Positions 30,440-61,632 of a stretch of 64,000 nt of DNA are shown here, one piece after another. The stretch comes from an uncultured bacterium (GTDB lineage Bacteria; Joyebacterota; Joyebacteria; Joyebacterales; Joyebacteraceae). A model generated the notes under the pieces. The model saw nothing but the letters and a program-made list of their open reading frames with translations. It ran no database searches and was not told the DNA's origin. The DNA is taken from the NCBI GenBank assembly GCA_964487295.1, contig CAZAQL010000001.1:13091-77090 (forward strand). The letters run 5' to 3'. Both the position numbers and the translations under genes were made by a program. Numbering within the stretch: the stretch's first letter is position 1; every line of letters starts with the position of its first letter.

Positions 30440-32203
30440 ATGAAGCGCGTAAGTACTGGACAGGTTGCAGTTTGGCTTCTCCTACTGCTCATCCTCGCCA
30501 CGCCGCAGGGAACGGCTCATGCGGCGTACCGGCTGGCGATCCTCGGCGACCGCACGGGAGGACACGAGCCCGGCGTCTACCCGTCCATCATCGAGGAGAT
30601 CGAGCTGCTCAAGCCGGACATCGTCGTGACCGTCGGCGATCAGATAGAGGGCTACGGGGACGACATGGAGGCCATGTCGGCCGAGTGGGACACGCTGCTC
30701 GGGATGCTCGACGCCATCGAGGCGCCCGTATACCTGACGGCGGGGAACCACGACATCTGGTGTGACGACAGCGAGGCCCTCTACCGGAATCGCACCGGGT
30801 TCGACCCGTACTACTCCTTCGACTTCGAACAGACCCACTTCGTGATCCTCGACAACAGCCGGTACGAGTCCTGGAACGAGATCGACGACGCGCAGCTCGA
30901 CTGGCTCCGTGAGGACCTTGGGCGTCACGGCCCTGACGGACAGGTCTTCGTCTTCTATCACAAGCCGCTCTGGCTTCTGACGACGGCTGCCGGCGTGAGC
31001 GACCCGGTGCACGAGCTCCTGGTGGAGCATGGTGTGGACGCCGTCTTCACGGGTCACTTCCACCACTACTTCCACGGAACGTACGACGGGATCCGGTACA
31101 CGAGCGTCGGAAGCTCGGGCGGGTATATGGAGCGCATGGAGACCGAGCCCGTCGCGCGAGGCGAGTTCTTCCAGTTCGCCTGGGTCACAGTGCGCGAGGA
31201 CGGGCTGGACCTCGCGGTGATCGACGCGGGGAACGTCTACCCTCTCGACTTCCACACCGTCGACAATCAGAGAGAGATCACCGCGATCGAGTCCGAGTAC
31301 GTCGCCGTCACGCCGCTCCGTCTGGACGAGGGAGCGACCGACACGCTCGATGTCGTCGTCAGGATCGAGAACGGCGCTTCGGTCCCGCTCGAGGATGTCG
31401 TCCGCTGGAGCGCGCCCGGGCTCTGGGCCGTCGAACCGGCCTCCCGCCCGGTCTCGCTCGAGCCGGGTGAGGCTCGGGAGTTCGAGTTCAGGATGTGCCC
31501 TCCCGAGTCCATCTTCCCAGCGCCCTCTCTCTCAGTGAACTACCCGCTGTCGAACGGCATGGAGGTGCTGGCCGAGGTTCCACTCCGCGTCATGCGGAGA
31601 GCCGAGGCGGCGCTCTTCGGCTCCGCGCCCGCGATCGACGGTGCGCTCACCGAGCCGTGCTGGCTCGCCGCGCAGCCCGTGACTCGACTCTACCCCGCGT
31701 ATGACGAGGACGAGTGCGACATCGACGGAGACACGGAGTTCCGGTTCGGACACGACGATGAGAACCTCTATCTGTCTGCCGTGTGCCACGAGCCGGCCAT
31801 CGACGCGATCGTCGCAGAGAGCGTGGAGCGGGACGGGCCCGTCTACCGCGACGACTGCGTCGGGTTCTTCATCCAGCCGGACACTGACGAGATGACCGTC
31901 TACCAGGTCTACGCCAGCCCGGAAGGAACGGTGTTCGACCAGCGCATCACGTACGATGAGTCCATGATCTACACGGCCGACGTGTCGTGGGACGGCGACT
32001 TCGAGGCGGCGTCCCGGATCGGCGAGGACCGCTGGGTCTTCGAGGCGGCGATCCCGCTCTCCGAGCTCGGCGTGGCCCTCGGCGAGAGCGATGTCTGGCG
32101 GATCAACTTCCGGCGCAAGCAACAGAGGACGTTCGGCGTCGAGGATTGGCAGGTGCCTCTCGACTACCATCCGAACACGCTCGGAGAGCTGGTCCTCAGG
32201 TAG
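30440..32203 (+). CDS. secreted calcineurin-like metallophosphoesterase with C-terminal CBM9-like/carbohydrate-binding-type domain
   Basis: Signal peptide. Metallophosphoesterase motifs GDRTGG, VTVGDQIE, GNHD, GHFHHY. C-terminal domain with CWLAAQPV..ENLYLSAVCHEP..DDCVGFFIQPD..WRINFRR. Confidence 0.75.
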   Translation: MKRVSTGQVAVWLLLLLILATPQGTAHAAYRLAILGDRTGGHEPGVYPSIIEEIELLKPDIVVTVGDQIEGYGDDMEAMSAEWDTLLGMLDAIEAPVYLTAGNHDIWCDDSEALYRNRTGFDPYYSFDFEQTHFVILDNSRYESWNEIDDAQLDWLREDLGRHGPDGQVFVFYHKPLWLLTTAAGVSDPVHELLVEHGVDAVFTGHFHHYFHGTYDGIRYTSVGSSGGYMERMETEPVARGEFFQFAWVTVREDGLDLAVIDAGNVYPLDFHTVDNQREITAIESEYVAVTPLRLDEGATDTLDVVVRIENGASVPLEDVVRWSAPGLWAVEPASRPVSLEPGEAREFEFRMCPPESIFPAPSLSVNYPLSNGMEVLAEVPLRVMRRAEAALFGSAPAIDGALTEPCWLAAQPVTRLYPAYDEDECDIDGDTEFRFGHDDENLYLSAVCHEPAIDAIVAESVERDGPVYRDDCVGFFIQPDTDEMTVYQVYASPEGTVFDQRITYDESMIYTADVSWDGDFEAASRIGEDRWVFEAAIPLSELGVALGESDVWRINFRRKQQRTFGVEDWQVPLDYHPNTLGELVLR

Positions 32204-32220
32204 CCGGCCCGCGGCGTGGG

Positions 32221-33390
32221 ATGCCCGCCGCGCCCGCGACGGATAGAGGCAGACGACTCGTGCCCGAACGGTGTGATCTTCTCGTTATCGGCGCCGGCCC
32301 TGCGGGAAGCGCGTGCGCCGCCGAGGCGGCGGCGCGCGGTCTCGACGTGCGCCTGCTCGACCGAGCCGACTTCCCGCGCGGTAAGCCGTGCGCCGCCGGG
32401 CTCACTTCGCACGCACTCGCGTTGTTCGACGGCGTCGCCGACAGGGTCATCCACCGTTCGGTCAACGTCGTCGAGATTCGTCTGACCGATCGTGTCCGGG
32501 CGACGTGGCGTGCGCCGAGAACAGTCGTGGCCACCACGACGCGCCGCGAGCTGGACAGTAGGCTGCTCGAACTGGCCGGCGCCGGGGGTGCGCGGGTTGA
32601 GACGGGGCGAGGCGTAACGCGGATCGAGCAGGACGAGCGCGGGGTTACGGTCGTGCGGGGGACCGACCGGATCCGGGCGGCGTACGCGGTGGTCGCCGAG
32701 GGCGCGGCGGGGAGGCTCCGGGAGCAGCTCGGCATGCCGCCACTCGCGCGCGCGGGCGGTGCCTACGTCCGGGTCGTGCCGCGTTCACAGGCCGCGTTCG
32801 ACGAGTTGGCGAAGAGCGTCCTTCTCGACATGCGGCGGCGTCGCCGCGGGTACGGCTGGGTCTTCCCGAAGCGCGACCACCTCAACGTCGGCGTGTTCGG
32901 ACCCGAACCGCTCGATGCGAGCTACCTCTCGGATCTCCGCCTCTTCGTCGAGTCGCTCCGGCTCGACCCACGCAGGGTCGAGGGTCCCTTCGCGGGGTTC
33001 GTTCCGCGAGCGTCTCGCGCCCGCGACCTGGGGAGCGGTCGCGTGCTCTCGGCGGGCGACGCGGCGGGGTTCGCGTCGGCCATCAGCGGTGAGGGGATCT
33101 CACACGCGGTCCTGGGTGGCCGGATCGCGGCACGCGTCATCTCCGACGGGTTCGTGGACGACGCAGAGAGAACGACGGTGCTGGGGCGCTATCGGGCCCT
33201 GGTCGCCCGCGATGTCCTTCCTCACACGAGGCTCTTCGGGATCCCGGGCCGCTGCCTCTACGCTCTCGGCCCCGGGTTCATCGGGGCGGTTCTGTCGTGT
33301 CGTCCGCTGGCGGCATCGGCCGAACGGTGGCTGCCGACGAGCTGGTACGGCTTGGGCGGCAGTCTCGACGTGCGCGTCGAGCGCGGCTAA
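32221..33390 (+). CDS. FAD-dependent oxidoreductase, geranylgeranyl reductase family
   Basis: DLLVIGAGPAGSACAAEAAARGLDVRLLDR Rossmann fold. GKPCAAGL. C-terminal GDAAGFASAISGEGI. ATG 32221; an in-frame GTG at 32260 is also possible. Confidence 0.7.
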   Translation: MPAAPATDRGRRLVPERCDLLVIGAGPAGSACAAEAAARGLDVRLLDRADFPRGKPCAAGLTSHALALFDGVADRVIHRSVNVVEIRLTDRVRATWRAPRTVVATTTRRELDSRLLELAGAGGARVETGRGVTRIEQDERGVTVVRGTDRIRAAYAVVAEGAAGRLREQLGMPPLARAGGAYVRVVPRSQAAFDELAKSVLLDMRRRRRGYGWVFPKRDHLNVGVFGPEPLDASYLSDLRLFVESLRLDPRRVEGPFAGFVPRASRARDLGSGRVLSAGDAAGFASAISGEGISHAVLGGRIAARVISDGFVDDAERTTVLGRYRALVARDVLPHTRLFGIPGRCLYALGPGFIGAVLSCRPLAASAERWLPTSWYGLGGSLDVRVERG

Positions 33391-33535: not shown

Positions 33536-33564
33536 TTGCTTTGCTCCGTAATCTGTGTTATCAT
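33536..33564 (+). promoter_or_regulatory. candidate sigma-70 promoter TTGCTT-N17-TATCAT in AT-rich island
   Basis: A local AT-rich stretch (cattgctttgctccgtaatctgtgttatcatttgaagttagg) in otherwise GC-rich DNA. AAGGAG 9 nt before ATG 33628. Confidence 0.4.
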
Positions 33565-33627
33565 TTGAAGTTAGGAGCAATCAAAGACGAGACGCCCGAT
33601 TTCCTCCTCGACAAGGAGATGGAGAGC

Positions 33628-36255
33628 ATGGTGCGTGTCCTGACAATCAGCCTTGCCGCGGCGCTGCTGGTCGCGGCCGCGGTCCCTGCGGCGGCCGGTC
33701 CCGAGGGGCCGTACGTGCAGGCCCGGGTCCAGTTCCGCGACGCCGCCGAGGCGGAGCGGTTCATGAGCCTGGACGAGCTCGACGTGATGAAGTACAAGCC
33801 CGGCGTCGGCGTTCAGCTCGTCACGAGCCACGAGCAGATCGAGGAGTTCCGGTCGCTCGGCTACGACGTCGTCATCGAGATCGATGACATGTCGAGCTTC
33901 TACGCCGCCCGGAACACGGCTCGCGGTTACGGTGACTTCTACACGTTCGACGAGACCGTGACCTTCATCAACTCGCTTCACGCGTCCTATCCGAACATCG
34001 TGAGCGAGCCCATCAGCATCGCGACGACGGAGCAGGGGAGGACGCTGTGGGCGCTCAAGATCTCCGACAACCCGGAGGTCGACGAGCTTGAGCCCGAGAT
34101 CCTTCTCGACGCGGTTCATCACGCGCGCGAGCCGATCACGATCAACGCCGTCCTCAACTACATGGACTGGCTGACGTCAAACTACGGGACGGACCCCGAG
34201 GCGACGTTCCTCGTAGACAACCGGGAGATCTGGTTCCTCCCGTGCGTCAACCCGGACGGCTATGTCTACAACGAGCAGACCGACCCCAACGGCGGCGGCA
34301 TGTGGCGCAAGAACCGCCGGGACAATGCCGGCAGCTCGTGTTACGGCGTCGACCCGAACCGCAACTACAGCTACCAGTGGGGCACGTCCGGCATCTCGTT
34401 CGACCCGTGCAGCGACATCTACTGCGGGACCCAGGCGTTCTCCGAGCCGGAGATCGCCGGCTACCGTGACTTCGTCGAGTCGCACGACTTCGTGACGAAC
34501 ATCACGTTCCACTCGGTCGCCGGAGCGATCCTGGTTCCGTGGAGCTACACGACCACATCCCCACCCGAGCCGGATAACACGATCTTCCGCGACATCGGCG
34601 ACATGATGGCGATGTCGAACGGCTACGAGGTCGGGACCGCGTACGAGACGATCAACTACACCTGCTCCGGCACCACCTGCGACTGGATGTACGGCGTGCA
34701 CGGGATCTGGTCGCTCTGCATCGAGGTGAGCGGCAGCGGCTTCTGGCCGCAGCAGAGCGAGATCGCCGGGCTCACGGCCGAGAACCTCTGGCCGCAGCAG
34801 TACATCAGCCGCATCGCGGGGGCCTACCTCGCGCTCAGCTCGACGCACTTCACCGGCGGAAACGGCGACCAGGAGCCGGACGCCGGCGAGACGCTCGACC
34901 TGACGATCACGGTCGAGAATCAGGGCGTCGTCGCGGACGCGTCGAACGTCCAGGTCACCCTGGTGACGGACGATCCGTACGTCGCGCTGCACGATGCGCA
35001 CACGACGCTCGGTTCGATCGCGGCGGGGTCCTCCACGCAGAACACGTTCGACCCGTTCTCCCTCTCGGTCGACGCGGGAACCCCGGACGGTCACGGTCTC
35101 GCCGTGACGCTCATCATCGAGGGCGACGGGCTGTACATGGAGGAGGAGCTGTCCTGGATGGTCGGCGAGCCGACGGTCGTGTTCTTCGACGACATGGAGA
35201 GCGGCACCGGCAACTGGGTCGAGAATGACGGCTACTGGGGTCTGACGACCTCGTCGTACCACTCGGCATCGAACAGCTACACGGACAGTCCGAACGGCAG
35301 CTACAGCAACTACCGGAACACGTGGATCGAGCTGGCGTCCCCGATCGACTTCTCCGCCGCGTCGGCTGCGGACCTCTCCTTCTGGCACCGCGTCTCCACG
35401 GAGGAGGACTACGACTTCTGCTACGTCGAGGTCTCGGACGACAACGGAGCGACGTGGAACCAGGTTGGCCCGAAGTACCACGGCAACAGCTACGGCTGGG
35501 ATCAGGTGGAGCTGTCGCTGAACGATTACGTCGGAACGGCGGGCTTCAAGCTCCGCTTCCGCTTCACGTCGGATACCTACGTGACCGCCGACGGATGGTA
35601 CGTGGACGACGTGACGATCAGCGGGCCGCCGACCGGCAACACGAAGCCGACCGCGCCGGTGCTGAACGACCCGCCCGATGGCGGCACGGTGTCGGTCTCC
35701 ACGCCGGAGCTCACGGTCACAAACGCCGTGGACAGCGATCCCGGCGACGTGCTCACGTACGGTTTCCGCGTCTACGACGACGAGTTCTGCACGAGCCTCG
35801 CCGCGTCGATCTCCGGCGTGGCCGAGGGCAGCGGAACGACGTCGTGGACCGTCGACTCCGGTCTCGCTGACGGCACGTACTACTGGCGGGCCTACGCGGA
35901 CGACGGGACCGAGCGAAGCCAGCTCATGGAGACCGCGTCCTTCACGGTGGAGAGCACGGGCGTCGACGAGGCCGTCGGCCGCCTCGCGCTCCATGCCGCG
36001 AGCCCGAACCCGTTTGCCGGTTCTGCGAGACTCTCGTTCTCGCTTCCCGAGCGAGCGGACGTCGAGCTCTCCGTCTACAGCGTTGACGGCAGACTGGTGC
36101 GAACGCTCGTATCCGGCGAGGCCGGTCCCGGCGTCATCGAGCTCACATGGGACGGTCGTGACAACGGCGGCCGCCGCGTGGGCAACGGCCTGTACTTCAT
36201 GCGCCTGACCGCGGCCGACGAGACGAGGCACGGCAAGCTCGTCATGCTCCGCTAG
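33628..36255 (+). CDS. secreted M14 zinc carboxypeptidase with MAM/jelly-roll-like and Fn3-like domains and Por/T9SS C-terminal sorting domain
   Basis: M14 zinc site HHAREP. Signal peptide. C-terminus ..SPNPFAGSARLSFSLPERADVELSVYSVDGRLVRTLVSGEAGPGVIELTWDGRDNGGRRVGNGLYFMRLTAADETRHGKLVMLR matches the T9SS CTD pattern. Confidence 0.85.
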   Translation: MVRVLTISLAAALLVAAAVPAAAGPEGPYVQARVQFRDAAEAERFMSLDELDVMKYKPGVGVQLVTSHEQIEEFRSLGYDVVIEIDDMSSFYAARNTARGYGDFYTFDETVTFINSLHASYPNIVSEPISIATTEQGRTLWALKISDNPEVDELEPEILLDAVHHAREPITINAVLNYMDWLTSNYGTDPEATFLVDNREIWFLPCVNPDGYVYNEQTDPNGGGMWRKNRRDNAGSSCYGVDPNRNYSYQWGTSGISFDPCSDIYCGTQAFSEPEIAGYRDFVESHDFVTNITFHSVAGAILVPWSYTTTSPPEPDNTIFRDIGDMMAMSNGYEVGTAYETINYTCSGTTCDWMYGVHGIWSLCIEVSGSGFWPQQSEIAGLTAENLWPQQYISRIAGAYLALSSTHFTGGNGDQEPDAGETLDLTITVENQGVVADASNVQVTLVTDDPYVALHDAHTTLGSIAAGSSTQNTFDPFSLSVDAGTPDGHGLAVTLIIEGDGLYMEEELSWMVGEPTVVFFDDMESGTGNWVENDGYWGLTTSSYHSASNSYTDSPNGSYSNYRNTWIELASPIDFSAASAADLSFWHRVSTEEDYDFCYVEVSDDNGATWNQVGPKYHGNSYGWDQVELSLNDYVGTAGFKLRFRFTSDTYVTADGWYVDDVTISGPPTGNTKPTAPVLNDPPDGGTVSVSTPELTVTNAVDSDPGDVLTYGFRVYDDEFCTSLAASISGVAEGSGTTSWTVDSGLADGTYYWRAYADDGTERSQLMETASFTVESTGVDEAVGRLALHAASPNPFAGSARLSFSLPERADVELSVYSVDGRLVRTLVSGEAGPGVIELTWDGRDNGGRRVGNGLYFMRLTAADETRHGKLVMLR

Positions 36256-38985: not shown

Positions 38986-39119
38986 CCGGAGCCATCCGGG
39001 GCGGGCGGCGTCTTGTCGCATTCGCGGCGAGCCCGTCAGAGCGGTCGGTGCCTCGTCGCATTCCCGGCGAACCCGTCTGGGCGGCTGGCACCTCGATGTG
39101 CCCACCCGGAGCCATCCGG
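38986..39119. repeat. composite repeat: two identical 14-bp palindromes (CCGGAGCCATCCGG) flanking a 40-bp direct repeat pair
   Basis: Palindromes at 38986-38999 and 39106-39119. Direct repeats GTCGCATTCGCGGCGAGCCCGTCAGAGCGGTCGGTGCCTC (39014-39053) and GTCGCATTCCCGGCGAACCCGTCTGGGCGGCTGGCACCTC (39055-39094). Confidence 0.8.
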
Positions 39120-39368
39120 ATCGAGCGTCGTTCCGTCTCTTCCCGCGGAATGACTGTCCCTCGGAAAGTTCTTGCGTCACCATTCAATTTTCGTTAGGAT
39201 ACTCATGAAGGCCCAAGCCGTGGTCGATTGTGGCTGAATCGAGTGTCAGTCGGGTACGATCACACGCGTCCTCACGGAGGATTCGAGAGCCCCCCCCGGT
39301 AGCGAACGCCGGAGGTCGGGGGCTGCCCCCCTCAGGATTCCGCGGCTTGCCGCTCCGTGAGGGTCGCA

Positions 39369-39386
39369 GGCTCCGATGCGGGAGCC
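39369..39386 (+). promoter_or_regulatory. palindrome GGCTCC-N6-GGAGCC immediately upstream of the TetR gene RBS (candidate operator)
   Basis: Perfect 6-bp inverted repeat, 17 nt before ATG 39403. TetR repressors typically bind palindromes overlapping their own promoter. Confidence 0.35.
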
Positions 39387-39402: not shown

Positions 39403-40008
39403 ATGGCACGGAAGAGAGTCGGGAACAAGCGCGAGAAGATCATCAACGCGGCGGCGAAGTTCTTCGGCGAGAAGGGCTACCACAACACGACGACCTCCGA
39501 GATCGCGGAGGCCGCCGGCGTGGCCGCCGGGACCATCTACATCTACTTCAACAGCAAGGAAGAGCTCATCGTCGCTGTCTTCGAGGAGTTCCTCGGGCGC
39601 CACATGGAGCGTCTCAGGGTGGGCGTCGAGTCCGTCGATGGTCCGATCGCGAGGATCCGCCGGCTCATGACGCTCGGACTCGAGCTCATGGAGAGCAACC
39701 CCGAGAGCGCGAGGATCTTCCTCTCGCAGCTCCGTCAGAGTACGACGATGATCAAGACGGTCGCCAAGCGCAGCAGCAGAGCCTACAAGGACATCATCGA
39801 GGCGGTGCTGACCGAGGGGATGACGAAGGGTGTCTTCCGTCCGATGGACACGGAGCACGTCGCCAGCATGCTCTTCGGCGCATACCAGATGACCGTGCTG
39901 GACTGGGTGGCGCGCGACTGCTCGTACTCACTCACGGCCAAATCGAAGGAGCTCGCTGATTTCGTGCTCATCGGTCTGGCCTGCGAGCTGCCGAAGGAGG
40001 ATTCGTAG
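39403..40008 (+). CDS. TetR/AcrR family transcriptional regulator
   Basis: HTH KREKIINAAAKFFGEKGYHNTTTSEIAEAAGVAAGTIYIYFNSKEEL. AAGGAG 7 nt upstream. Confidence 0.85.
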   Translation: MARKRVGNKREKIINAAAKFFGEKGYHNTTTSEIAEAAGVAAGTIYIYFNSKEELIVAVFEEFLGRHMERLRVGVESVDGPIARIRRLMTLGLELMESNPESARIFLSQLRQSTTMIKTVAKRSSRAYKDIIEAVLTEGMTKGVFRPMDTEHVASMLFGAYQMTVLDWVARDCSYSLTAKSKELADFVLIGLACELPKEDS

Positions 40009-40158
40009 GAACGAAGGCTCCCGGATGACGGGAGTCGCGGTGGTAACTGAAGTACTTCGGTTCGCCGTCCTGGGGAGTTGTCCGGATGGCGGATGGGCGG
40101 ATGCGGAGAAAGGCGCGGACATTCTCCGAACGGACGGCGACGCATGTGAGGTGATACC

Positions 40159-41670
40159 ATGCAGCCGTCACAGAGTCATCAGGACACGATCAAGGGGCAC
40201 CTGCTCCGCAAGCTGGGCGCCTGGGGAAGCAGGCGATCCGCGGACGACGTCAGGAAGCTCGTAAGCTGGTCGGCGAAGGGGCTTCCCGAAGGCGTCATAC
40301 GCGACCGGGTCGAGAGCTTCCGCAGGGCCCTGGACTCCTCGGCGGCGGCGAGCGAGCTCGTCGACGCGTTCTTCAACCTCGCACCGACCTGCCGCAGGCG
40401 CATCATCGAGAACCTGCTTGTCAACTGGGGCATTCTCGGCGGCCAGACCCGGTATCACATCATGGAGTCCGAGGGGTGGATGCCGCCGAACTTCGCGGTC
40501 ATAAGCCCCACCATGCGATGCAACCTCCGCTGCAGGGGGTGCTACGCCTTCGAGTACACGCGGGACGGAGAGCTCACGACCGAGGAGTTCGACGACGTCA
40601 TATCGCAGTGCAAGGCGCTCGGCATCCACTTCTTCACGATCTCCGGCGGCGAGCCGTTCGTCCGTGAGGACCTCCTCGATCTCATCGACCGTCACAGCGA
40701 CTCCCTCTTCCAGATATACACGAACGGCACGCTCATCGACGATGCTGTGGCGGACCGCCTCCTCGAGCTCGGCAACGCGATGCCGGCCATCAGCGTCGAG
40801 GGGTACGAGGAGGAGACCGACGCCCGGCGCGGCCCCGGCACGCACGCCCGCCTGACGGCCGCGATGGAACGGCTCAGAGAGCGCGATCTGCTGTTCGGGA
40901 TCTCCGTCACGGCGACGCGTCACAATCAGGAGATCCTGACGAGTGAGTCGTTCTACGATTCGTACATCGAGCGCGGCGCGCTCTTCGCCTGGATCTTCCA
41001 GTACATCCCGATCGGCCGCGAGCCGGATGTCGATCTCATGCCGACGCCGAGTCAGAGGACGGAGCTCAGGAGGTTCGTCCACGGCCTGCACCGGACGAAG
41101 CCGATCTTCATCGGGGACTTCTGGAACGACGGCGCCTACACGGGCGGCTGCATGGCCGGCGGCCGGATCTACTTCCACGTCACGTCGAGCGGCGGAGTGG
41201 AGCCCTGCGTCTTCGCCCACTTCTCCGTCGGCAACGTGCGCGAGCGTCCGCTGCGCGAGATCCTTCAGTGCGATTTCTTCAAGGCGATTCGCTACGCGCA
41301 GCCTTACCGTGAGAACAGGAACCTCTACACGCCCTGTATGATCATCGACAACCCCGAGGTGCTCCGCGATCTCGTCGCGGAGTTCCGCGTCCCGCCAAGT
41401 CACGCCGGCGCGGAGACCATCGTGGCCGATCCCCGGATCGTCGCGCACCTGGACGAATACTCCCGGGGGATCAGACGACTGGCCGACCCCGACTGGGAGC
41501 GTGATCATTGGGATGATCCGGACTCCGAGTGGTACCGCGATGGCGGCTATCGCCTCGAACGCCAGTGGGCGGACGAGCGCGAGGCGCTTGTTCGATGGAA
41601 CGAGGAGCGGGGAAGGAAGAGGAGCCGACGGTCCGGTGTGGAGGCCGCAGCGGGGCACGTGATCCGGTAG
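40159..41670 (+). CDS. radical SAM enzyme with SPASM/twitch-like auxiliary Cys cluster, ~110-aa N-terminal extension
   Basis: CNLRCRGCY (CxxxCxxC) and GGEPF motifs. Downstream GGCMAGGRIYFHVTSSGGVEPC..C SPASM-like pattern. GAGGTGA RBS. Confidence 0.75.
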   Translation: MQPSQSHQDTIKGHLLRKLGAWGSRRSADDVRKLVSWSAKGLPEGVIRDRVESFRRALDSSAAASELVDAFFNLAPTCRRRIIENLLVNWGILGGQTRYHIMESEGWMPPNFAVISPTMRCNLRCRGCYAFEYTRDGELTTEEFDDVISQCKALGIHFFTISGGEPFVREDLLDLIDRHSDSLFQIYTNGTLIDDAVADRLLELGNAMPAISVEGYEEETDARRGPGTHARLTAAMERLRERDLLFGISVTATRHNQEILTSESFYDSYIERGALFAWIFQYIPIGREPDVDLMPTPSQRTELRRFVHGLHRTKPIFIGDFWNDGAYTGGCMAGGRIYFHVTSSGGVEPCVFAHFSVGNVRERPLREILQCDFFKAIRYAQPYRENRNLYTPCMIIDNPEVLRDLVAEFRVPPSHAGAETIVADPRIVAHLDEYSRGIRRLADPDWERDHWDDPDSEWYRDGGYRLERQWADEREALVRWNEERGRKRSRRSGVEAAAGHVIR

Positions 41671-41699
41671 CGGCGGACCCGTGCGGCCGTAGACCAGCC

Positions 41700-42881
41700 C
41701 TACCGTGAGAGGTCCGAGCGGATCTCGAGATTCCTCATGATGTCGCCGCGCGTCACGATCCCGACGAGCCGGCCGTTCTCCACGACCGGCAGCCTTCCCG
41801 AGCCTTCGGCCGCGAGCTTGCGCATCGCCGCGGGAATGGGATCGCCCGGGCGGAGCGTGTTCTCGTCGGTGATGGTCGTCATGACATCGCCCACGTGTGT
41901 CTCCGACCAGCGGTCGCGTGGCGTGTGCTTCACGTCCTTGATCGTGACGAAGCCGAGCGCGCGATCTCCCTCCGCCACGGGATAGCAGACGAAGTGATGG
42001 TGGAGGAAGTGCTCGTTCACGAGCGCGTCGAGGGTGATCGCGGGGGAGACGGTCACGACCTCCCGCGTCATCGCGTCGCCGACGCTCGCACCCGCGATCG
42101 CGCGCTTGAGCGCTATCTGGCGGTAGCTTGCCTCCGCACCCTGCCTGAGGAAGAGGGCGATGAAGATGAGCCAGAGCCCCGGAGCGATGCCCCCGATGAA
42201 CAGGATCACGACCAGGCCGATGACGATCATCAGACCGGCGATGACCTGACCGGTCACGCTCGCGACGAGCGTCGCGCGCCTGAGGCTCCCGGTCACGCGC
42301 CAGACGACCGCGCGCAACACGCGGCCGCCGTCCAGCGGCAGACCGGGGAGCAGGTTGAAGAGGAGCAGGAAGGTGTTCGCCACGGCGAGATAGAGCAGAG
42401 CGCGGTGAGCAGCGGGCCGGCCGGTCACCCTTCCCAGAATGATGACGCCCGCCCAGAACGCGACGGCGAGCACGGCGCTGACGGCCGGGCCGGCCAGCGC
42501 GACCTTGAGCTCGGTGGACGGGTCCTCGGGCTCCTTGTGGATCTCCGCGATGCCCCCGAAGAGGAAGAGTGTGATCCGCCTGACGGGAATGCCGTGCAGG
42601 ACGGCGACCATGCTGTGAGCGAGCTCATGGACGACGACAGACGCGAAGAAGAAGAAGGCCGTGATGAGACCCAGCGTGACGTAGTGTGCGAGCGACAGGT
42701 TGGGTATGGCGCTCGGGAACCAGCCGATACTGAGCGTCCCGACGAAGAGCGCCACGATGAGGAACCAGCTGTAGTGGGCCACGACACGGATACCCATGAC
42801 CGAGAAGAGCGGGATCCCGCTGTGGCTGGCCACCCAGGAGAGGCCGCGAGGGCTTCGGCGTGCGTTCATGAGCTCCAGCAT
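41700..42881 (-). CDS. M50 family site-2 protease with tandem CBS domains
   Basis: HELAHSMV zinc motif within TM helices. LPGLPLDGG (LDG motif). C-terminal CBS pair. Start ATG 42881; an alternative ATG at 42869. Confidence 0.8.
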   Translation of the reverse strand: MLELMNARRSPRGLSWVASHSGIPLFSVMGIRVVAHYSWFLIVALFVGTLSIGWFPSAIPNLSLAHYVTLGLITAFFFFASVVVHELAHSMVAVLHGIPVRRITLFLFGGIAEIHKEPEDPSTELKVALAGPAVSAVLAVAFWAGVIILGRVTGRPAAHRALLYLAVANTFLLLFNLLPGLPLDGGRVLRAVVWRVTGSLRRATLVASVTGQVIAGLMIVIGLVVILFIGGIAPGLWLIFIALFLRQGAEASYRQIALKRAIAGASVGDAMTREVVTVSPAITLDALVNEHFLHHHFVCYPVAEGDRALGFVTIKDVKHTPRDRWSETHVGDVMTTITDENTLRPGDPIPAAMRKLAAEGSGRLPVVENGRLVGIVTRGDIMRNLEIRSDLSR

Positions 42882-43041: not shown

Positions 43042-43089
43042 GGATAATTGGAAGCGAATGAGTGGGTCATGGCATCCGAACGGAGGAAC

Positions 43090-44868
43090 ATGATGCGCAG
43101 ACTGACCGCTTTGCTCGTCCTCGTGCTTGTTCTCGTCTCGGCGCTCTCAGCCGCGGCGAAGCTTGAGCTGGCCGAGATGACGACGCGCGGCGCGATCCAG
43201 GACGCCACGGCGCGCGGCGACCTGGAGGAGGCACAGAAGTACCTCTACATGGCGTATTCGATCTATGCGCCCGAGAAGCTGCCGGCGGAGTATCGCGGCG
43301 GCCGGATCGACAAGTGCGGCGTCCCGACCATCGAGGCGATCGACGACGCGCTCCCCACGTTGCCCGAGGCTGTGGCGAACGAGATCCGCGGCCTGCGGGT
43401 TCGCCCGTCGTGTCAGACCTACATGGACACCGAGCATTTCCGCATCCACTACGATACGAGCGGCACGCACGCGATCCTCTCGACCGACTACCTCAACGCC
43501 ATCGCAACGGCTCTGGAGAACTGCTGGGACGAGGAGATCGACGTGCTCGGGTTCCGTCAGCCGCCGAGCGACGGCAGCGACGCGGACGGCGGAGGCGGCA
43601 GCGCGCACTACGACTTCTACGTCCAGAGCCTCTCGGGCGTTTACGGCTACTGCCAGCCGACGTTCTACGCCCCGGGCGGACCCGCGAACGACGCGACGAG
43701 CTTCTGCGTCATCGACAACGACTACGCGGGGTTCGGATACGTCGACCCGACAGACCCGATGAAGGTCACGGTCGCCCACGAGTTCTGTCACGGCCTTCAG
43801 GCCGCGCACGACGTGAACGAGGAGCTGTGGTACAAGGAGTGCACGTCGGTGTGGGTCGAGGAGATGGTCTACGACGAGATCAACGACTACACGCAGTACT
43901 GCAGCTCGTTCTTCTCGAGCCTCTGGCGCCCGCTGGAGTACGACGACAGCAACGTCCGCATCTACGGGTCGTTCGTCTGGAACATGTTCCTCACGGAGAA
44001 CATCAGCCCCAGCGTGGTCGTGGACAACTGGTGGCAGATGGAGGTCTCGGGAGAGTACACGGCCATGAACGCCGTGTTGACCACATACGGGACGTCGCTC
44101 GAGGAGCAGTTCCACGAGTTCAGCATCTGGAACTTCTTCACGAACGCGAGGAACGACGGCGCCCACTACGAGGAAGCCGCTTACCTGCCGCTCGCCTCGT
44201 TCCAGCGGACCTTCGGCATGTATCCGCTGACCGACGTGGGTCCGTACACGGCGACGCGTCCGGACCACATGGGTTCCAACTACATCAAGTTCTCGAACCC
44301 CGGGAACACGTGGACCGGTCTCCACCTCTCGTTCGACGGTCCTGCGCTCTACGAGCTGCCCTACTGGGCCGACGTCTGCGTCCGCGAGGACCAGGTCGGC
44401 GTGGGGCACACGAGCCATCTCGGCGAGATCACGCTGAACCCGTGGGGCAACGGCGACATGACGGTCGCTGACTGGGATCTCATGGACTACGCGTGCCTGA
44501 TCGTCACGAACGGCTGCACGACGACCGATGACATGGACTACCTCTTCAGCGCCGAGCAGGTCGACACCGGCGTCGAGGTCGGCTCTCACATCTTCGCGAT
44601 GAAGCCGGCCAGCCCGAATCCGTTCACGGCGCAGACCTCGATCGCGTACACCGTCCCCAACGGCGGAGGCGCCGTCGAGATGACGATCTACGACGTCAAC
44701 GGCAGAGCCGTCCGCACGCTCGTCGACGAGCAGATGATGCCCGGCGACCGTCTGGCGTACTGGGACGGCCTGGACAACAACGGCGAGAAGGTCGCGTCCG
44801 GCGTCTACTTCGCGCGCCTCAACGTCGACGGCCTGACGGCCTGCGGCAAGCTCGTCGTTCTGAAGTAA
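43090..44868 (+). CDS. secreted HEXXH zinc metallopeptidase-like protein with Por/T9SS C-terminal sorting domain
   Basis: Signal peptide MMRRLTALLVLVLVLVSALSAAA. HEFCH motif (TVAHEFCHGLQAAHD). C-terminus ..ASPNPFTAQTSIAYTVPNGGGAVEMTIYDVNGRAVRTLV..GVYFARLNVDGLTACGKLVVLK. Confidence 0.7.
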   Translation: MMRRLTALLVLVLVLVSALSAAAKLELAEMTTRGAIQDATARGDLEEAQKYLYMAYSIYAPEKLPAEYRGGRIDKCGVPTIEAIDDALPTLPEAVANEIRGLRVRPSCQTYMDTEHFRIHYDTSGTHAILSTDYLNAIATALENCWDEEIDVLGFRQPPSDGSDADGGGGSAHYDFYVQSLSGVYGYCQPTFYAPGGPANDATSFCVIDNDYAGFGYVDPTDPMKVTVAHEFCHGLQAAHDVNEELWYKECTSVWVEEMVYDEINDYTQYCSSFFSSLWRPLEYDDSNVRIYGSFVWNMFLTENISPSVVVDNWWQMEVSGEYTAMNAVLTTYGTSLEEQFHEFSIWNFFTNARNDGAHYEEAAYLPLASFQRTFGMYPLTDVGPYTATRPDHMGSNYIKFSNPGNTWTGLHLSFDGPALYELPYWADVCVREDQVGVGHTSHLGEITLNPWGNGDMTVADWDLMDYACLIVTNGCTTTDDMDYLFSAEQVDTGVEVGSHIFAMKPASPNPFTAQTSIAYTVPNGGGAVEMTIYDVNGRAVRTLVDEQMMPGDRLAYWDGLDNNGEKVASGVYFARLNVDGLTACGKLVVLK

Positions 44869-44988: not shown

Positions 44989-45474
44989 ATGAGCGAGAAG
45001 CTCGAGCGAGAGGTCGAGTGGCTGAGGCGGGTCCGGTCCGGCTTCCGATACATGGCGACGGTCCACAGCCAGGTCGGCACCCTCGTTTACCGCGCCCTGC
45101 GCGTGCGCGACAGCTACTCCTCGCGCTCGCTCCGGCTCCGCCACTGGGACACCACCGGCGGGCAGGTCACTCTGACCGATGACGAGCACAAGGCGGTCGT
45201 GCCTGTCTACGACTTCGGCTTCATCCACAACCTCTATCACATGGCGGACGAAGACGCTGAGACCGTCGTGCTGGCGGCCTGGTACCTCGTGGCCCACGAG
45301 TGGGGACACTACTATCTGGCGAAGGCGGGGAAGCGGAACCAGGAGCGGGACGCGGACGCGTTCGCGGAGCGCGTGATGGTCCGGGTCGGGTTTGATGAGG
45401 AGGAGGCCGCCGGGGCGGAGGACCAGTACTGGATCGTCTTCAACGACGACAAGAAGCCCGCTCACGCCCGCTAG
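44989..45474 (+). CDS. hypothetical small protein with HEWGH (HExxH) motif
   Basis: GTGGAGG RBS 6 nt before ATG. AAWYLVAHEWGHYYL. 161 aa. Confidence 0.5.
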   Translation: MSEKLEREVEWLRRVRSGFRYMATVHSQVGTLVYRALRVRDSYSSRSLRLRHWDTTGGQVTLTDDEHKAVVPVYDFGFIHNLYHMADEDAETVVLAAWYLVAHEWGHYYLAKAGKRNQERDADAFAERVMVRVGFDEEEAAGAEDQYWIVFNDDKKPAHAR

Positions 45475-47021: not shown

Positions 47022-47283
47022 CGCGGACTCCTGGTCAGAAGTGTCTGCTCCGAACGAAGTTTCTGATCGGACCGCGCGCGTGCGATCCGGGGGAGCGTCG
47101 GGGCCTGGCGCGAGTATGCGCGCGGCGCGTCCGCCCCGTCAAGCGTCAGGCCCTCCGCCGTCCGGTCTCGGAGCGGCGACTGCCGTCAGACCACGGTGGG
47201 CACATGCCGTCAGGCCAAGGGGACGGCCTGCTGTACGGCCCGCGAGGCTGCCAAGACCCGCAGGGTGAAGCCCGGCCGTTCGC

Positions 47284-47312
47284 TTGACACCCTGGCTGCG
47301 GTGGCGATAGAG
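47284..47312 (+). promoter_or_regulatory. candidate promoter TTGACA-N17-ATAGAG
   Basis: Consensus -35. Weak -10. About 30 nt upstream of GTG 47340. Confidence 0.3.
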
Positions 47313-47339
47313 TCCGCGCACACCAGGGAGGTGCGGAGC

Positions 47340-48239
47340 GTGACGATGACCGTGACAGGCTATTCAAGGACGCGCCCGGCGCGCGCGGGAGAGGGTGCTG
47401 CCCGGAGCGGCCCGGCGCGCGAGGGAGACGGCGATACCCGGACCGGCCCGGCTCGCGCGGAAGCGAGCCGCACGGCGCCCCGGCGCCGGCGCCGCGCAGT
47501 GGGTGCGGCGGCGACTTGCGTCGGGCTCGCGGCGCTCGGTCTTGCGCTCCTCGGTCCGTTGCCGGTTCGAGCGGCGGAGCCTCTGTCGAGTGCGGAGCTC
47601 GCCGAGCTTCTGGAGCGCTACAATTCGTTCGTCAGACACGAGCGCTGTCTGATCGAGACGCTTCGCGTGGTCCAGACCATGGTGGATCCGCAGGAGGACG
47701 GCTCGGAGCGGACCGCGGTCGCCGAACTCACGTACATCGCCGGCAGCGGTATGGTCCGCGACGTACTCTCCTCGGACCTGGCCCATCCTGAGGGTGACTA
47801 CACGCTGGACAGCGTGATCGGACCCGAGCTTCCAGGCGGGGAGTACGACATCGAGCCCGTCGGCCGCGACACGGTGGACGGCGAGTCCGCGTTCCACCTG
47901 CGTGTGACCGCGCTCGACCGAGACAGGGATCACTTCGACGGCGAGATCTGGATATCCGAGATGGACGCCTCGCCCGTCCGCGTCCGGGGACGCGTCGCCG
48001 ACCCGCCCTTTCCCGTGGTCCTCATCACCTTCGACAAGCGGTTCGAGCGGCTCGCGCCGCAAGACGTTCGTGGCGAGGAGTGCCCGACCGCTCTCCGACT
48101 GCTCCGGCGTCACTCCGGCGAGGCCGAGGTGAACCTGCTGCTCGGGAGGAAGCGCGGGCAGCGTCACATCTTCTACGACGACTACGTCGTGAGGGTTCGA
48201 CCTCCGGACGGCGGGCCGACCGGAAGCACAGCCGATTGA
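47340..48239 (+). CDS. hypothetical secreted protein (Arg-rich TAT-like leader)
   Basis: GTG 47340 lies 8 nt after GGAGG; ATG 47346 is also in frame. Leader ..RRRRRAVGAAATCVGLAALGLALLGPLPVRAA. The mature part has ordinary globular composition. The antisense ORF 47364..48626 is R-rich junk. Confidence 0.5.
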   Translation: MTMTVTGYSRTRPARAGEGAARSGPAREGDGDTRTGPARAEASRTAPRRRRRAVGAAATCVGLAALGLALLGPLPVRAAEPLSSAELAELLERYNSFVRHERCLIETLRVVQTMVDPQEDGSERTAVAELTYIAGSGMVRDVLSSDLAHPEGDYTLDSVIGPELPGGEYDIEPVGRDTVDGESAFHLRVTALDRDRDHFDGEIWISEMDASPVRVRGRVADPPFPVVLITFDKRFERLAPQDVRGEECPTALRLLRRHSGEAEVNLLLGRKRGQRHIFYDDYVVRVRPPDGGPTGSTAD

Positions 48240-48692: not shown

Positions 48693-49262
48693 TCAGCGAT
48701 ACAGCGCCTTGATCGCCGACCAGGATCTCTCCTCGACCGGCTGGCCCTCGCAGTCGCCGTCGTCGGCGAACTTGCCGACCCCGCCGTGCCAGAGAACGCA
48801 GTAGATGTGGACCTGATCGTCGCAGTCGACCACCCAGCGCGGGTAGTCGGGATGGTCACCGATGATGATGTCGCCTGGCGCTCCCAGGTAGAACAGGTGC
48901 ACCACGGCGATCGGGTACGGGTGCTGCCCGAGATCGATGCACTCGGTGGACGAGAGCGTGATGCCCTCCTCCCAGTTGCCGATGGAGAGGCCGCCGGGGA
49001 GGAGGCTCTCGTAGCTCGGCGGCGAGGACGTCCCGGGTGTCACGTCGAGCTGGAACGAGATGGTCGTGAAGCCCACGCCGCTGCCGAACATCTCGAGCAT
49101 GACGTAGGCATCCACGGACGTGTAGGCGTCGGGATAGGCCTGGGGCTGGTAGTTCCCCGGGTCGAAATCGATGTACATCGCGTCGAAGCCGACCGGGTTG
49201 CCCGCGGCCACGGCGGCGCCCAGCGACAGGAGCAGCACGACAGCCATAGCAGTACGCAGCAT
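48693..49262 (-). CDS. hypothetical secreted protein
   Basis: ATG 49262 with GGGAGGTGA RBS. Signal peptide MLRTAMAVVLLLSLGAAVAAG. 189 aa. No recognised domain. Confidence 0.55.
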   Translation of the reverse strand: MLRTAMAVVLLLSLGAAVAAGNPVGFDAMYIDFDPGNYQPQAYPDAYTSVDAYVMLEMFGSGVGFTTISFQLDVTPGTSSPPSYESLLPGGLSIGNWEEGITLSSTECIDLGQHPYPIAVVHLFYLGAPGDIIIGDHPDYPRWVVDCDDQVHIYCVLWHGGVGKFADDGDCEGQPVEERSWSAIKALYR

Positions 49263-49398
49263 GGTCACCTCCCTCGTTGAGGACGAGCACCGACCACCAG
49301 TCATCATTATACCACGCCCTGCCGGTCGATGCACGAGCCGCGCAGCGCCGGACCGGGTTCACCGGAAGAAGCCCCGCGGTCCCGCGATGCGGGGCGCG

Positions 49399-49497: not shown

Positions 49498-51267
49498 ATG
49501 AGCAGCTTCAGGGGCTTCCTGACACACCTCGCCCGATATCGATGGAAGGTGCTGCTGGGCCTTGCGAGCCTGATCGTTGTCGACGCGATGCAGCTCGTCA
49601 TCCCGCGGATCATCAAGAGCGCCGTCGATGATCTCACGGCCGGCGCGGCCGGCGGGAACGACCTCGTCCGGTACGGGCTCGTCATCGCCGGACTCGCCGC
49701 CGGCATCGCGGTCTTCCGGTTCGCCTGGCGCTTCTTCATCATCGGGACCTCCCGCCGGATCGAGGAGGACATCCGCAACAGGATCTTCCGCCACCTCCAT
49801 CTGCTCTCCGCCCGGTACTACTCCGCAAACAAGACCGGTGACCTGATGGCGCGCGCGACGAACGACCTGAACGCGGTCCGGATGGCGTGCGGCATCGGCA
49901 TCGTCGCGATGACCGACGCCGTCCTGCTGGGGCTTGCGACCATCGTGTTCATGCTGGCGCTCAACGTGCGACTGACGCTGCTCGCTCTCATTCCGATGCC
50001 CATCATCGCGCTCTTCGCGCTCCGGGCGGGGCGGATGCTCCACCAGCGGTTCGAGAGAGTGCAGGCGACCTTCTCGGACCTCACCGAGCGCGTGCGGGAG
50101 AGCATCGCCGGGATCCGCGTGGTCAAGGCGTACGTGCAGGAGGACTACGAGTTCGAGCGCCTCGCCGACGTCGGTCGGGACTACATCCGGAGGAACATCC
50201 GGCTCGTCAGGGTCTGGGGGGCGTTCTTCCCGTTCATCATGCTCCTCTCCAGCATGAGCATCGTCATCGTGATCTTCGTGGGCGGCCGGCAGGTGATGAC
50301 GGGAGACATCTCGACCGGCGACCTCGTGGCCTTCACGAGCTACCTCGGGATCCTGACCTGGCCGATGATGGCCATGGGGTGGGTCGTCAATGTCATGCAG
50401 CGCGGCGCGGCGTCTATGGAGCGCATCCAGGGTATCCTCGACGCGGACGTGGAGATCGCCGACGCCGACGGGGCCGTGGAACTCGACGAGGTCCGCGGTG
50501 AGATCGAGTTCGATCACGTGACCTTCCGCTATGAGAAGGACCTCGAGCCCGCTCTCGACGACGTGAGCTTCCACGTGCCCTCGGGCTCGTGGCTCGGCGT
50601 CCTGGGGCGGACCGGGTCCGGCAAGAGCACCGTGTGCAATCTCCTCCTCCGGCTGTTCGAGACGGACGAGGGCACCGTGATGCTCGACGGGCACGACGTG
50701 AGATGTCTAACGCTCGCGTCGCTCAGGCGGGCCTACGGATACGTTCCGCAGGACACGTTCCTCTTCTCCGATACCGTGCTTGAGAACGTCCGGTTCGGAC
50801 ACCCCGGCGCGACCGAGGACGACGTGCGGAGGGCGCTCGACGTGGCCGGCATCGCCGAGGAGATCGAGGAGTTCCCGAAGGGGCTCGAGACGCTCGTCGG
50901 CGAGCGCGGCGTGACGCTGTCGGGCGGGCAGAAGCAGCGGATCGCCATCGCGCGCGCCATCCTCGGTGCGCCGGCGGTCATCATCCTCGACGACTCGCTG
51001 TCGTCGGTCGACACCGCGACCGAGGAGCGCATCCAGGAGCACCTGCGCGATGAACTGGCGGGTCGCACGAGCATCATCGTGTCGCACCGCATCTCGTCGA
51101 TCAAGGACTGCGACCAGATCATCGTTCTCGACGAGGGCCGCGTCATCGAGCGTGGTCGGCACGAGCAGCTCGTCGAGCACGGGGGCCTCTACGCGGACAT
51201 CTACCGCCGGCAGCTGCTGGAGGAGGAGATGGAGGAGAGCGACGAGGCGGAGGAGGAGACCGCGTGA
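49498..51267 (+). CDS. ABC transporter permease/ATP-binding protein (type I exporter half-transporter, subunit 1)
   Basis: Six-TM domain followed by Walker A GRTGSGKST, signature LSGGQKQR, Walker B IILDDSLSS. Confidence 0.85.
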   Translation: MSSFRGFLTHLARYRWKVLLGLASLIVVDAMQLVIPRIIKSAVDDLTAGAAGGNDLVRYGLVIAGLAAGIAVFRFAWRFFIIGTSRRIEEDIRNRIFRHLHLLSARYYSANKTGDLMARATNDLNAVRMACGIGIVAMTDAVLLGLATIVFMLALNVRLTLLALIPMPIIALFALRAGRMLHQRFERVQATFSDLTERVRESIAGIRVVKAYVQEDYEFERLADVGRDYIRRNIRLVRVWGAFFPFIMLLSSMSIVIVIFVGGRQVMTGDISTGDLVAFTSYLGILTWPMMAMGWVVNVMQRGAASMERIQGILDADVEIADADGAVELDEVRGEIEFDHVTFRYEKDLEPALDDVSFHVPSGSWLGVLGRTGSGKSTVCNLLLRLFETDEGTVMLDGHDVRCLTLASLRRAYGYVPQDTFLFSDTVLENVRFGHPGATEDDVRRALDVAGIAEEIEEFPKGLETLVGERGVTLSGGQKQRIAIARAILGAPAVIILDDSLSSVDTATEERIQEHLRDELAGRTSIIVSHRISSIKDCDQIIVLDEGRVIERGRHEQLVEHGGLYADIYRRQLLEEEMEESDEAEEETA

Positions 51268-55116: not shown

Positions 55117-55994
55117 TCAGCCCGCCTTCTCCGCCGCCCGCATCTCCGTCGCCATGTGCCTGTGGTTCCACACAGCGGCCGCGATGATGAGCGCGATCCC
55201 CGCGAGGCTCAAGCGGTCGGGCACCTCTCCCCAGAGCACGAGCGCTATCACCCCGGCGAAGACGACGTGCGCGTAGTTGTAGATCGAGAGCTGCGACGCC
55301 TGGGCCTGATGGTAGCCGTACGTCAGCGCGAACTGGCCACTCGTGGCGAACACACCCGCCCCGAGCAGAGCCAGCCACTGCCGGGGATCGGGGTGGACGT
55401 ATGTGGCGATCGTCGGCCCGATGACCGCGACCACCGAGACGAGTGAGAACCAGAACACCACGGTGTAGGGCGGCAGCTTGCCCCTGAGCGAGCGGACGAC
55501 GGTGTACGCGCCGCCCGAGCACATCGCCGAGACCAGCCCGGCGACGGCCGGCATCGCCCGGTAATCGAGCTGTGGCTTGAGCACGAGCGCGGCGCCCAGA
55601 AAGGCAACGAGGAGCGCGGGAACGACGTGTCTTGAGAGTCGCTCGCCGAGAAACGCCACGGCGAAGATGGTGACGAAGAACGGCGAGAGCTTGTTGAGGA
55701 TCGTCGCGTCCGCGAGGTTCAGACGCCCGATGGCGTAGAAGTAGAGCAGCATCGCGGCGGTCCCGAACGCACCCCGAAGCAGCAGCACGGGCGCGAGGCG
55801 CCCCTGCGCGAACGGGTTCTCGCCGTACCTTGCCCCGACGGCCGCCATCGCCACGAGCGAGACGACGCTCCGGTAGAACACCTTCTCAACGACCGGGATG
55901 TCTCCGGCGAGCCTCACCATCACCCCGACGAGCGAGAACGAGACGGATGCCACGAGGATCGCCACCACGGCGCGCCCCGCGTTGTCGCGCGTCA
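55117..55994 (-). CDS. DMT superfamily (EamA-like) transporter
   Basis: 10-TM hydrophobic profile with two EamA-type halves. The start is placed at in-frame GTG 55994. The track ORF extends to 56079, overlapping the upstream gene by 55 nt with atypical N-terminal composition. Confidence 0.6.
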
Positions 55995-56024
55995 CGGGGT
56001 CGTGACCGATGCGCAAAGGGTGGC

Positions 56025-61479: not shown

Positions 61480-61508
61480 TTGACGACCTGCCGTCATTTG
61501 GGTATTAT
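61480..61508 (+). promoter_or_regulatory. near-consensus sigma-70 promoter TTGACG-N17-TATTAT with TGACG-N6-CGTCA palindrome over the -35
   Basis: AT-rich island (tgattgaaagtcattgacgacctgccgtcatttgggtattatcgtattgttg). ~125-nt leader before ATG 61633. Confidence 0.5.
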
Positions 61509-61632
61509 CGTATTGTTGTCGGACTACCAATCATCAACGAACAGAGTTGCTGCCAGCGGAAGGGTCGGCGGCCAGGTCGCGTTGTCGCGCCTGTCCGTGT
61601 CGCTCGTCCGCGCCATCACGGAGGAGCCGACG

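Follow-up and report, generated by a model that had tools for sequence, protein, structure and literature searches.

Genes of the locus and architecture of the radical-SAM enzyme

We analysed a window of 64,000 nucleotides (nt) from an uncultured bacterium of the Joyebacterota (GenBank assembly GCA_964487295.1, contig CAZAQL010000001.1, positions 13,091 to 77,090), with attention to a gene at 40159..41670 of its forward strand. This gene encodes a soluble radical S-adenosylmethionine (SAM) enzyme of 503 amino acids with the Pfam domains Radical_SAM and SPASM, which we consider, from its sequence, a probable new member of a known family, the membrane-spanning lipid synthases (Mss). A TetR-family regulator of the FadR/YsiA type, with the Pfam domains TetR_N and TetR_C_4, is encoded ahead of the enzyme on the same strand (39403..40008), and an intergenic region of 150 nt (40009..40158, forward strand) separates the two genes. 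A gene for an M50 protease with a CBS pair (41700-42881) runs convergently on the reverse strand, its stop codon 29 nt from that of the enzyme gene, and an ATP-binding cassette (ABC) half-transporter pair lies 7.8 kb downstream (49498-53351). An earlier inspection of the same DNA (hereafter the sequence-only reading) had described this layout, with the regulator in front, the protease gene less than 30 nt away on the other strand and an ABC exporter pair at about 7 kb, and every one of these genes is present.

Coding is supported for the TetR, radical-SAM and M50 genes by a G+C content at third codon positions (GC3) of 0.86-0.90, and a GAGGTGA ribosome-binding site stands directly ahead of the enzyme's ATG at 40159. 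The M50 protein contains several hydrophobic segments and combines the features of a site-2 protease with a CBS pair, namely an HExxH motif (HELAH at residue 85), an NxxPxxxLDG-type motif (LPGLPLDG at residue 178) and two CBS domains (76.7 bits).

The enzyme matches Radical_SAM with 75.9 bits and, partially, SPASM with 32.5 bits over residues 331-393. Its radical-SAM cluster motif, C121-N-L-R-C125-R-G-C128 (40519..40542, forward strand), contains five residues (C121, N122, C125, G127 and C128) that are invariant in our family alignment of 33 sequences (A1), in which columns of at least 90% are termed nearly invariant. Outside this motif, the only cysteines invariant in the family are C331 (within GGCMAGG), C350 (within GGVEPC) and C393, all located in an auxiliary-cluster region of the twitch or partial SPASM type (41149..41337, forward strand). 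The CxxCx5Cx3C signature of a full SPASM domain was not found in the enzyme, nor were seven or eight auxiliary cysteines. Because just these three are invariant in the family, the sequence indicates a single, twitch-like auxiliary cluster rather than a full seven-cysteine SPASM domain. The sequence-only reading had noted a CxxxCxxC core and a C-terminal cysteine pattern of the SPASM/twitch type; the core (C121-x3-C125-x2-C128) and the C-terminal cysteines are indeed there, and of the two auxiliary types named, twitch is borne out and full SPASM is not.

An AlphaFold2 model of the enzyme (mean predicted local distance difference test score (pLDDT) = 88.6; predicted template-modelling score (pTM) = 0.89) consists of a five-helix N-terminal domain, a partial TIM-barrel radical-SAM core, a cysteine-bearing β-hairpin region and C-terminal helices. 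A fold search returned SkfB, SuiB and anSME as the best structural matches. The N-terminal extension, defined by the model and the family alignment as residues 1-105 (40159..40473, forward strand), comprises helices 7-21, 28-41, 46-60, 62-72 and 76-105. It occurs throughout the family, with an identity of 19% compared to 56% for the core, has no match to a Pfam family, and might serve as a lipid-binding or membrane-docking domain. The long-helix extension at the C-terminus (residues 456-503; 41524..41667, forward strand; helix 464-499 in the model) is confined to an Eisenbacteria-like clade, and in the remaining members of the family this segment is absent or cannot be aligned (4% identity). 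Long extensions had been noted before at both ends, and both exist, with only residues 456-503 being specific to the clade.

Relationship to the membrane-spanning lipid synthases

Mss are radical-SAM enzymes found in Thermoanaerobacter ethanolicus (WP_129545148.1) and Thermotoga maritima (Tmari_0825 / WP_004080829.1), and anaerobic expression of both in Escherichia coli led to the coupling of two fatty-acid tails to C32-C34 diacids (Sahonero-Canavesi et al. 2022, Sci Adv, PMC13159169). Diacid production has been demonstrated for these two enzymes only (PMC13159169). Six conserved Mss blocks are described in the supplement of the same authors' preprint (bioRxiv 10.1101/2022.04.21.487849), and we compared them on the basis of the published text description rather than the figure. 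At this level of detail, all six map to invariant or nearly invariant columns of our alignment. Block I (CNxxCxGC) coincides with the radical-SAM motif and its five invariant residues. Block II, described as GGE with conserved L, F and N, corresponds to the invariant residues G163, G164, E165, F184 and N189, and block III, which has N, S and a glycine-rich stretch with an arginine, to N206, S212, G215, R223, R224 and G225. The tryptophan of block IV, followed by P, Q and R, is found as W278, P297, Q299 and R300. Block V (aspartate beside phenylalanine, then Y, H and VEPC) is represented by D320, F321, Y338, H340 and V347-E348-P349-C350, and block VI (three prolines with C, V and A) by P382, P392, C393, P399 and V406.

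The authors' criterion for an Mss homolog is an identity of at least 30% and E <= 1e-50 to the T. ethanolicus or T. maritima enzyme. As a proxy for these two, we used the homologs of Dictyoglomus, one each in D. turgidum (ACK42997.1 / WP_012584072.1) and D. thermophilum (ACI19839.1 / WP_012548471.1), with which our protein shares 39-40% identity across about 88% of its length (E = 2e-118 and 6e-118). Diabolic acid is produced by both species, whose Mss homologs are included in the alignment of Fig. 4B (PMC13159169). More generally, members of the window family share 39-47% identity with homologs from Dictyoglomus, Thermotogota and Clostridia, and the family has in common with Mss a size of about 460-500 residues, the six blocks, a usually stand-alone gene and the distribution over phyla. 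Mss have been reported from candidate phyla of the FCB group, Omnitrophica, Atribacterota, Synergistetes, Spirochaetes, Armatimonadetes, Caldiserica, Chloroflexi and DPANN/Asgard archaea, and our family, found in Zixibacteria, Omnitrophota, Atribacterota, Synergistota, Spirochaetota, Armatimonadota, Caldisericia, Chloroflexota, Actinomycetota and Woesearchaeota, agrees with this list. By its motifs and its homology, the enzyme falls in with the Mss family.

A homolog search of 5.8 billion proteins with a threshold of E <= 1e-5 yielded more than 4,500 sequence clusters, and the enzyme, previously called an orphan, is one of a tight family with thousands of members, put in total at more than 5,000 clusters from anaerobic bacterial phyla and DPANN archaea. 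The full-length relatives with 60-81% identity are metagenome sequences, some of them labelled Eisenbacteria (one ortholog, 80% identical, is on contig Ga0180435_10000002 of JGI 3300017992), and the next tier (43-54%) comes from WS1, Armatimonadota, Omnitrophota, Caldatribacteria, Spirochaetia, Hydrothermae and archaea. A genome scan with one genome per species identified relatives in at least 544 species. The closest named genome among the matches listed is Candidatus Effluviviaceae (63% identity), and other genomes with relatives belong to Zixibacteria, Actinomycetota, Synergistaceae, Atribacterota, Woesearchaeota and Methanosarcinales. Mesoaciditoga (Thermotogota) has a homolog with 44% identity and Anaerolinea thermophila one with 43%, and family members also occur in Clostridium spp. 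and Caldisericia. Thermotoga and Thermoanaerobacter do not appear among the best 80 loci of the scan, nor among the top 120 matches of homolog searches that started from the Mesoaciditoga and Dictyoglomus proteins. The window clade is 60-81% identical internally and at most 54% identical to all other sequences; it has been kept at this level in many metagenomes, and its catalytic residues are strongly conserved. Another Eisenbacteria-labelled metagenome-assembled genome (MAG) encodes a shorter Mss-family type of 454 residues (protein P0306 of locus L085, 8001-9365), which is a stand-alone gene without TetR. P0306 shares only 44% identity with the window protein, so that two divergent gene versions are found under the phylum label Eisenbacteria.

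Other radical-SAM families were compared as well. Gms, the synthase of glycerol monoalkyl glycerol tetraethers (GMGTs), is an AhbD homolog with an N-terminal COG4001 extension of about 100 residues, and it matches AhbD of Methanosarcina barkeri with E = 7e-79 and 36% identity (PNAS 2024, PMC11214058). If it acts on lipids, the window protein would be like Gms in this respect, as it is in being a radical-SAM enzyme of the SPASM/twitch kind; its own N-terminal extension is of similar length, with no match to a family model, and Gms-like genes adjoin members of the window family at two loci, L082 and L072. However, it has three auxiliary cysteines whereas Gms has seven or eight, and it is not AhbD-like, with 26% identity to the Gms-like protein of L082. 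Membership of Gms was rejected, as the window protein reaches no more than 97.9 bits with TIGR04545, the AhbD model, in a match confined to residues 118-292, compared to 271 bits for the L082 protein. Tes was rejected too, with a phmmer E-value of 0.003 covering only the radical-SAM core and a rank below SkfB, SuiB and anSME in fold searches; the window protein has no specific sequence relationship to archaeal Tes / GDGT-MAS (PDB codes 7tol, 7tom). Tes contains more metal sites, reportedly three [4Fe-4S] clusters and a rubredoxin-like iron.

Gene neighbourhoods in the window and in relatives

The set used for neighbourhood analysis comprises 85 loci, with the genome scan represented by the best 80 of its at least 544 species, and all open reading frames (ORFs) of at least 70 residues were clustered. 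The recurrent neighbours of the enzyme in this set are lipid genes. Acyltransferases of the Lip_A_acyltrans/LPLAT type occur at 10 of the 85 loci, often in adjacent position, and B12-binding radical-SAM enzymes, usually adjacent, at nine. TetR regulators with a YsiA-like C-domain are found at eight loci, four of them outside the Eisenbacteria-like group, EamA transporters likewise at eight, and glycosyltransferases of families GT4 and GT2 at five each; Pfam confirmed these families.

Loci L082 (5172-10136) and L072 (3163-7141), from an unclassified MAG and an uncultured Clostridia MAG, have an operon in common that encodes a TetR regulator, an Mss-family enzyme, a B12-binding radical-SAM enzyme and an AhbD-like radical-SAM enzyme. 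Its Mss-family member is 46% identical to the window protein (E = 3e-124), and its B12-binding enzyme resembles BchE, HpnJ and the "lipid biosynthesis B12-binding" type. The AhbD/NirJ2-like enzyme has an N-terminal extension of 110 residues and, in L082 (8727-10136), reaches its 271 bits on the AhbD model over the full length. Bacterial gms genes have been reported in clusters with mss, and the association of gms and B12-binding radical-SAM genes with mss is reproduced in these two relatives, not in the window itself. The operon looks like a regulated cassette for making and modifying bridged spanning lipids in bacteria.

The M50-CBS gene adjoins the enzyme gene only in the window and in two relatives (L001 and L002), where the entire 17-kb neighbourhood is collinear. 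The ABC pair is a generic exporter of the SmdA/SmdB/MsbA-like type and lacks a C39 peptidase domain. We rejected both as partners of the enzyme; since they are its neighbours in close relatives only, the protease and the ABC pair are probably unrelated to it.

Several other genes of the window deserve mention. Three ORFs at 44989-45474 and 47196-48239 (forward strand) and 48693-49334 (reverse strand) have a coding-like GC3 and no Pfam or NCBIfam match, and for the first two, L001 and L002 contain counterparts in corresponding places. An FHA-GAF-SpoIIE (PP2C) phosphatase gene (53431-55071, forward strand) lies directly 3' of the ABC pair. Separately, Spirochaetota loci repeatedly have a response-regulator-PP2C phosphatase close to the Mss-family gene (cluster 11, nine loci). 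Large secreted proteins with a C-terminal FlgD_ig / Por_Secre_tail-like domain are encoded at 33541-36255, 43048-44868, 58810-61323 and 61480-63543. They comprise an M14 carboxypeptidase, a 606-residue protein (43048-44868) that matches FlgD_ig/Por_Secre_tail alone, a beta-helix/NosD-like protein and a DUF6689 protein. Such C-terminal domains are typical sorting signals of the FCB group, and L001 and L002 are collinear with the window over the secreted-protein genes that surround the enzyme. Two flavoproteins of the geranylgeranyl-reductase family are encoded at 56025-57371 (reverse strand; 185 bits) and 31987-33390 (forward strand; 164 bits; TIGR02032, cutoff 158.8). The best equivalog of the former, whose gene abuts that of an EamA transporter (55117-56079), is archaeal digeranylgeranylglycerophospholipid reductase (218 bits over the full length, cutoff 580). 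These genes might point to saturation of isoprenoid lipids in a genome that also encodes an Mss homolog.

Proposed regulation and activity, and alternative readings

The TetR ORF opens at 39376, with a likely start at 39403 that has AAGGAG 8 nt upstream and gives a protein of 201 residues, as in the L001 and L002 orthologs. The protein scores 71.5 bits with TetR_N and 53.2 bits with the YsiA-like TetR_C_4, and its best NCBIfam match is Bacillus-type FadR (NF053878; 137 bits, below the cutoff of 200 bits). The nearest solved structures are FadR of Bacillus halodurans (PDB codes 5gp9, 5gpa; E = 2e-34) and YsiA/FadR of B. subtilis (1vi0, 3whb). Similarity to the Bacillus proteins (these four entries and 5gpc) extends over both domains and the full length, with E-values from 2e-34 to 9e-28. 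The window regulator differs from them in scoring below the equivalog cutoff and in adjoining a putative lipid-tail-coupling gene rather than a β-oxidation regulon. FadR/YsiA proteins are repressors that long-chain acyl-CoA releases. With a regulator of this type, and with the TetR-enzyme pairing found again in at least four lineages besides this one, control of the enzyme gene by this TetR is plausible.

The spacer between the two genes contains a near-perfect, AT-rich palindrome of 18 bp, AACTGAAGTACTTCGGTT (40045-40062), which is unique in the window and for which no occurrence is expected by chance; we regard it as a weak operator candidate. A scan for a σ70-like promoter or a terminator in 40009..40158 gave nothing above shuffled expectation. 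The 3' part of this spacer is conserved with L001. Upstream of the regulator, the 470-nt spacer that separates it from the gene of a PKD-domain protein holds three copies of a direct repeat of about 40 nt (38989-39148), which are 65-75% identical to the reference copy and are bracketed by inverted GGAGCCATCCGG.

By analogy with the characterized Mss, we infer what the enzyme does, on which substrate and under which control, as follows. The [4Fe-4S] cluster bound by CNxxCxGC would act with SAM to form 5'-deoxyadenosyl radicals, and these would act on two fatty-acyl chains of the membrane, removing hydrogen at the omega or omega-1 carbon. An auxiliary cluster on C331, C350 and C393 might then assist formation of the carbon-carbon bond between the two tails, and the product would be a membrane-spanning lipid of the diabolic or iso-diabolic-acid type. 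The FadR/YsiA-type TetR would repress the enzyme gene until a build-up of long-chain acyl-CoA lifts repression, so that the output of spanning lipid would be tied to fatty-acid status. Published work has found mss to be regulated by growth phase and temperature, which such a derepression model would fit.

Several observations weigh against this picture and have to be taken into account. The link to Mss runs through the motif descriptions and the Dictyoglomus homologs, not through the validated Mss sequences, and for this uncultured lineage the lipid product is a prediction. The window clade is moreover a distinct sub-branch with its own C-terminal extension, the 48-residue helix that sets it apart from described Mss, and for this reason the substrate or the position of coupling could differ. 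As for the regulator, a TetR gene stands upstream on the same strand at just eight of the 85 loci, and the TetR proteins of the window and of L082 share only 27% identity. The genes upstream of mss in T. ethanolicus encode a ferredoxin and an iron-dependent repressor, with no TetR, in contrast to the window gene behind its FadR-type regulator. In L001 and L002, the corresponding spacers lack the palindrome AACTGAAGTACTTCGGTT.

The sequence-only reading had framed the enzyme as a peptide- or protein-modifying maturase, possibly part of a system for a ribosomally synthesized and post-translationally modified peptide (RiPP) with its precursor encoded elsewhere. A SPASM/twitch maturase of this kind, perhaps served by the M50 protease and the ABC exporter that lie near the gene, would be in keeping with SkfB, SuiB and anSME as the nearest solved folds and with NCBIfam matches to mycofactocin and sactipeptide maturases. 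Those matches are far below their cutoffs, however, with at most 100 bits against 265-650. ORFs of 18-100 residues within 1 kb of the enzyme gene formed no family crossing phyla at the 85 loci; the clusters obtained are confined to closely related genomes and overlap with ThrRS, ribosomal protein L35 or antisense TetR. This agrees with the remark in the earlier reading that no convincing precursor ORF lies nearby. No Pfam hit to a RiPP recognition element (RRE)-type domain was found in the enzyme. The RiPP reading is unsupported because there is no small ORF shared across phyla, the M50 gene is adjacent only in collinear close relatives and the ABC pair lacks a peptidase domain; with lipid genes as the neighbours elsewhere, we hold a maturase to be highly improbable. 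If the enzyme is an Mss, the missing precursor peptide is explained, as the substrate would be a lipid. Hardly any credence can be given to an enzyme of cofactor biosynthesis akin to AhbD/NirJ (heme, heme d1), PqqE or MoaA, even though NirJ2 (99.9 bits) and AhbD (97.9 bits) lead the NCBIfam list. Both scores are confined to the radical-SAM core (residues 118-292) and far under the cutoffs of 500 bits, the AhbD type has two auxiliary clusters as against three conserved auxiliary cysteines here, and none of the loci has genes for heme or pyrroloquinoline quinone (PQQ) in the neighbourhood. AhbD/NirJ, PqqE, mycofactocin and sactipeptide maturases were all rejected at scores far under the curated cutoffs. 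Among the options offered earlier, a radical-SAM enzyme acting on a small molecule, named there as a fallback, comes nearest to the evidence.

Within the same family, the enzyme might catalyse another reaction on lipid tails, such as Gms-like mid-chain cross-linking, cyclisation or isoprenoid coupling. The separate position of the window clade and its C-terminal extension would allow for this, and the B12-binding radical-SAM and Gms-like genes beside family members in relatives show that genes for different lipid-tail chemistries tend to be grouped; the window also has the two geranylgeranyl-reductase-family genes, and the helices at the N-terminus of the enzyme have a parallel in the lipid-binding extension described for Gms. 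We nevertheless consider such a reaction unlikely, as the Mss blocks are conserved in the family, the window protein included, and as the AhbD model and the 26% identity to the L082 protein, given above, separate it from the Gms-like type. It is also conceivable that this family member is silent in the window lineage or acts there on a substrate other than a lipid. Some Clostridia have been reported with Mss homologs and yet no detectable spanning lipids (PMC13159169), and no lipid gene is directly adjacent to the enzyme in the window. The strong conservation of the catalytic residues, the maintenance of the clade at 60-81% identity across many metagenomes and a dedicated regulator of the fatty-acid type make this very unlikely. 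A variant that departs from diabolic acid might apply because of the private C-terminal helix, the FadR-type TetR and the two geranylgeranyl-reductase-family genes; the enzyme would then be an acyl-CoA-gated coupler of isoprenoid or mixed chains, or one that couples at a different position. We regard this as quite unlikely, but if true, an uncultured soil and sediment phylum would have its own route to hybrid spanning lipids or to lipids of the branched glycerol dialkyl glycerol tetraether (GDGT) type.

Returning to the enzyme as a probable Mss, its wider interest lies in these lipids. Branched GDGTs, in wide use as palaeotemperature and pH proxies, are presumed to derive from membrane-spanning bacterial lipids, and the source organisms of branched GDGTs in anoxic soils and sediments are still debated. 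That Mss homologs are widespread in candidate phyla was already known, and the RiPP lead has been removed as false. With the present enzyme, an Eisenbacteria/Effluviviacota-like lineage joins the candidate producers of lipids of the branched-GDGT type. The recurrence of a FadR-type regulator before mss, inside and outside the Eisenbacteria-like group, suggests a link between acyl-CoA and spanning lipids.

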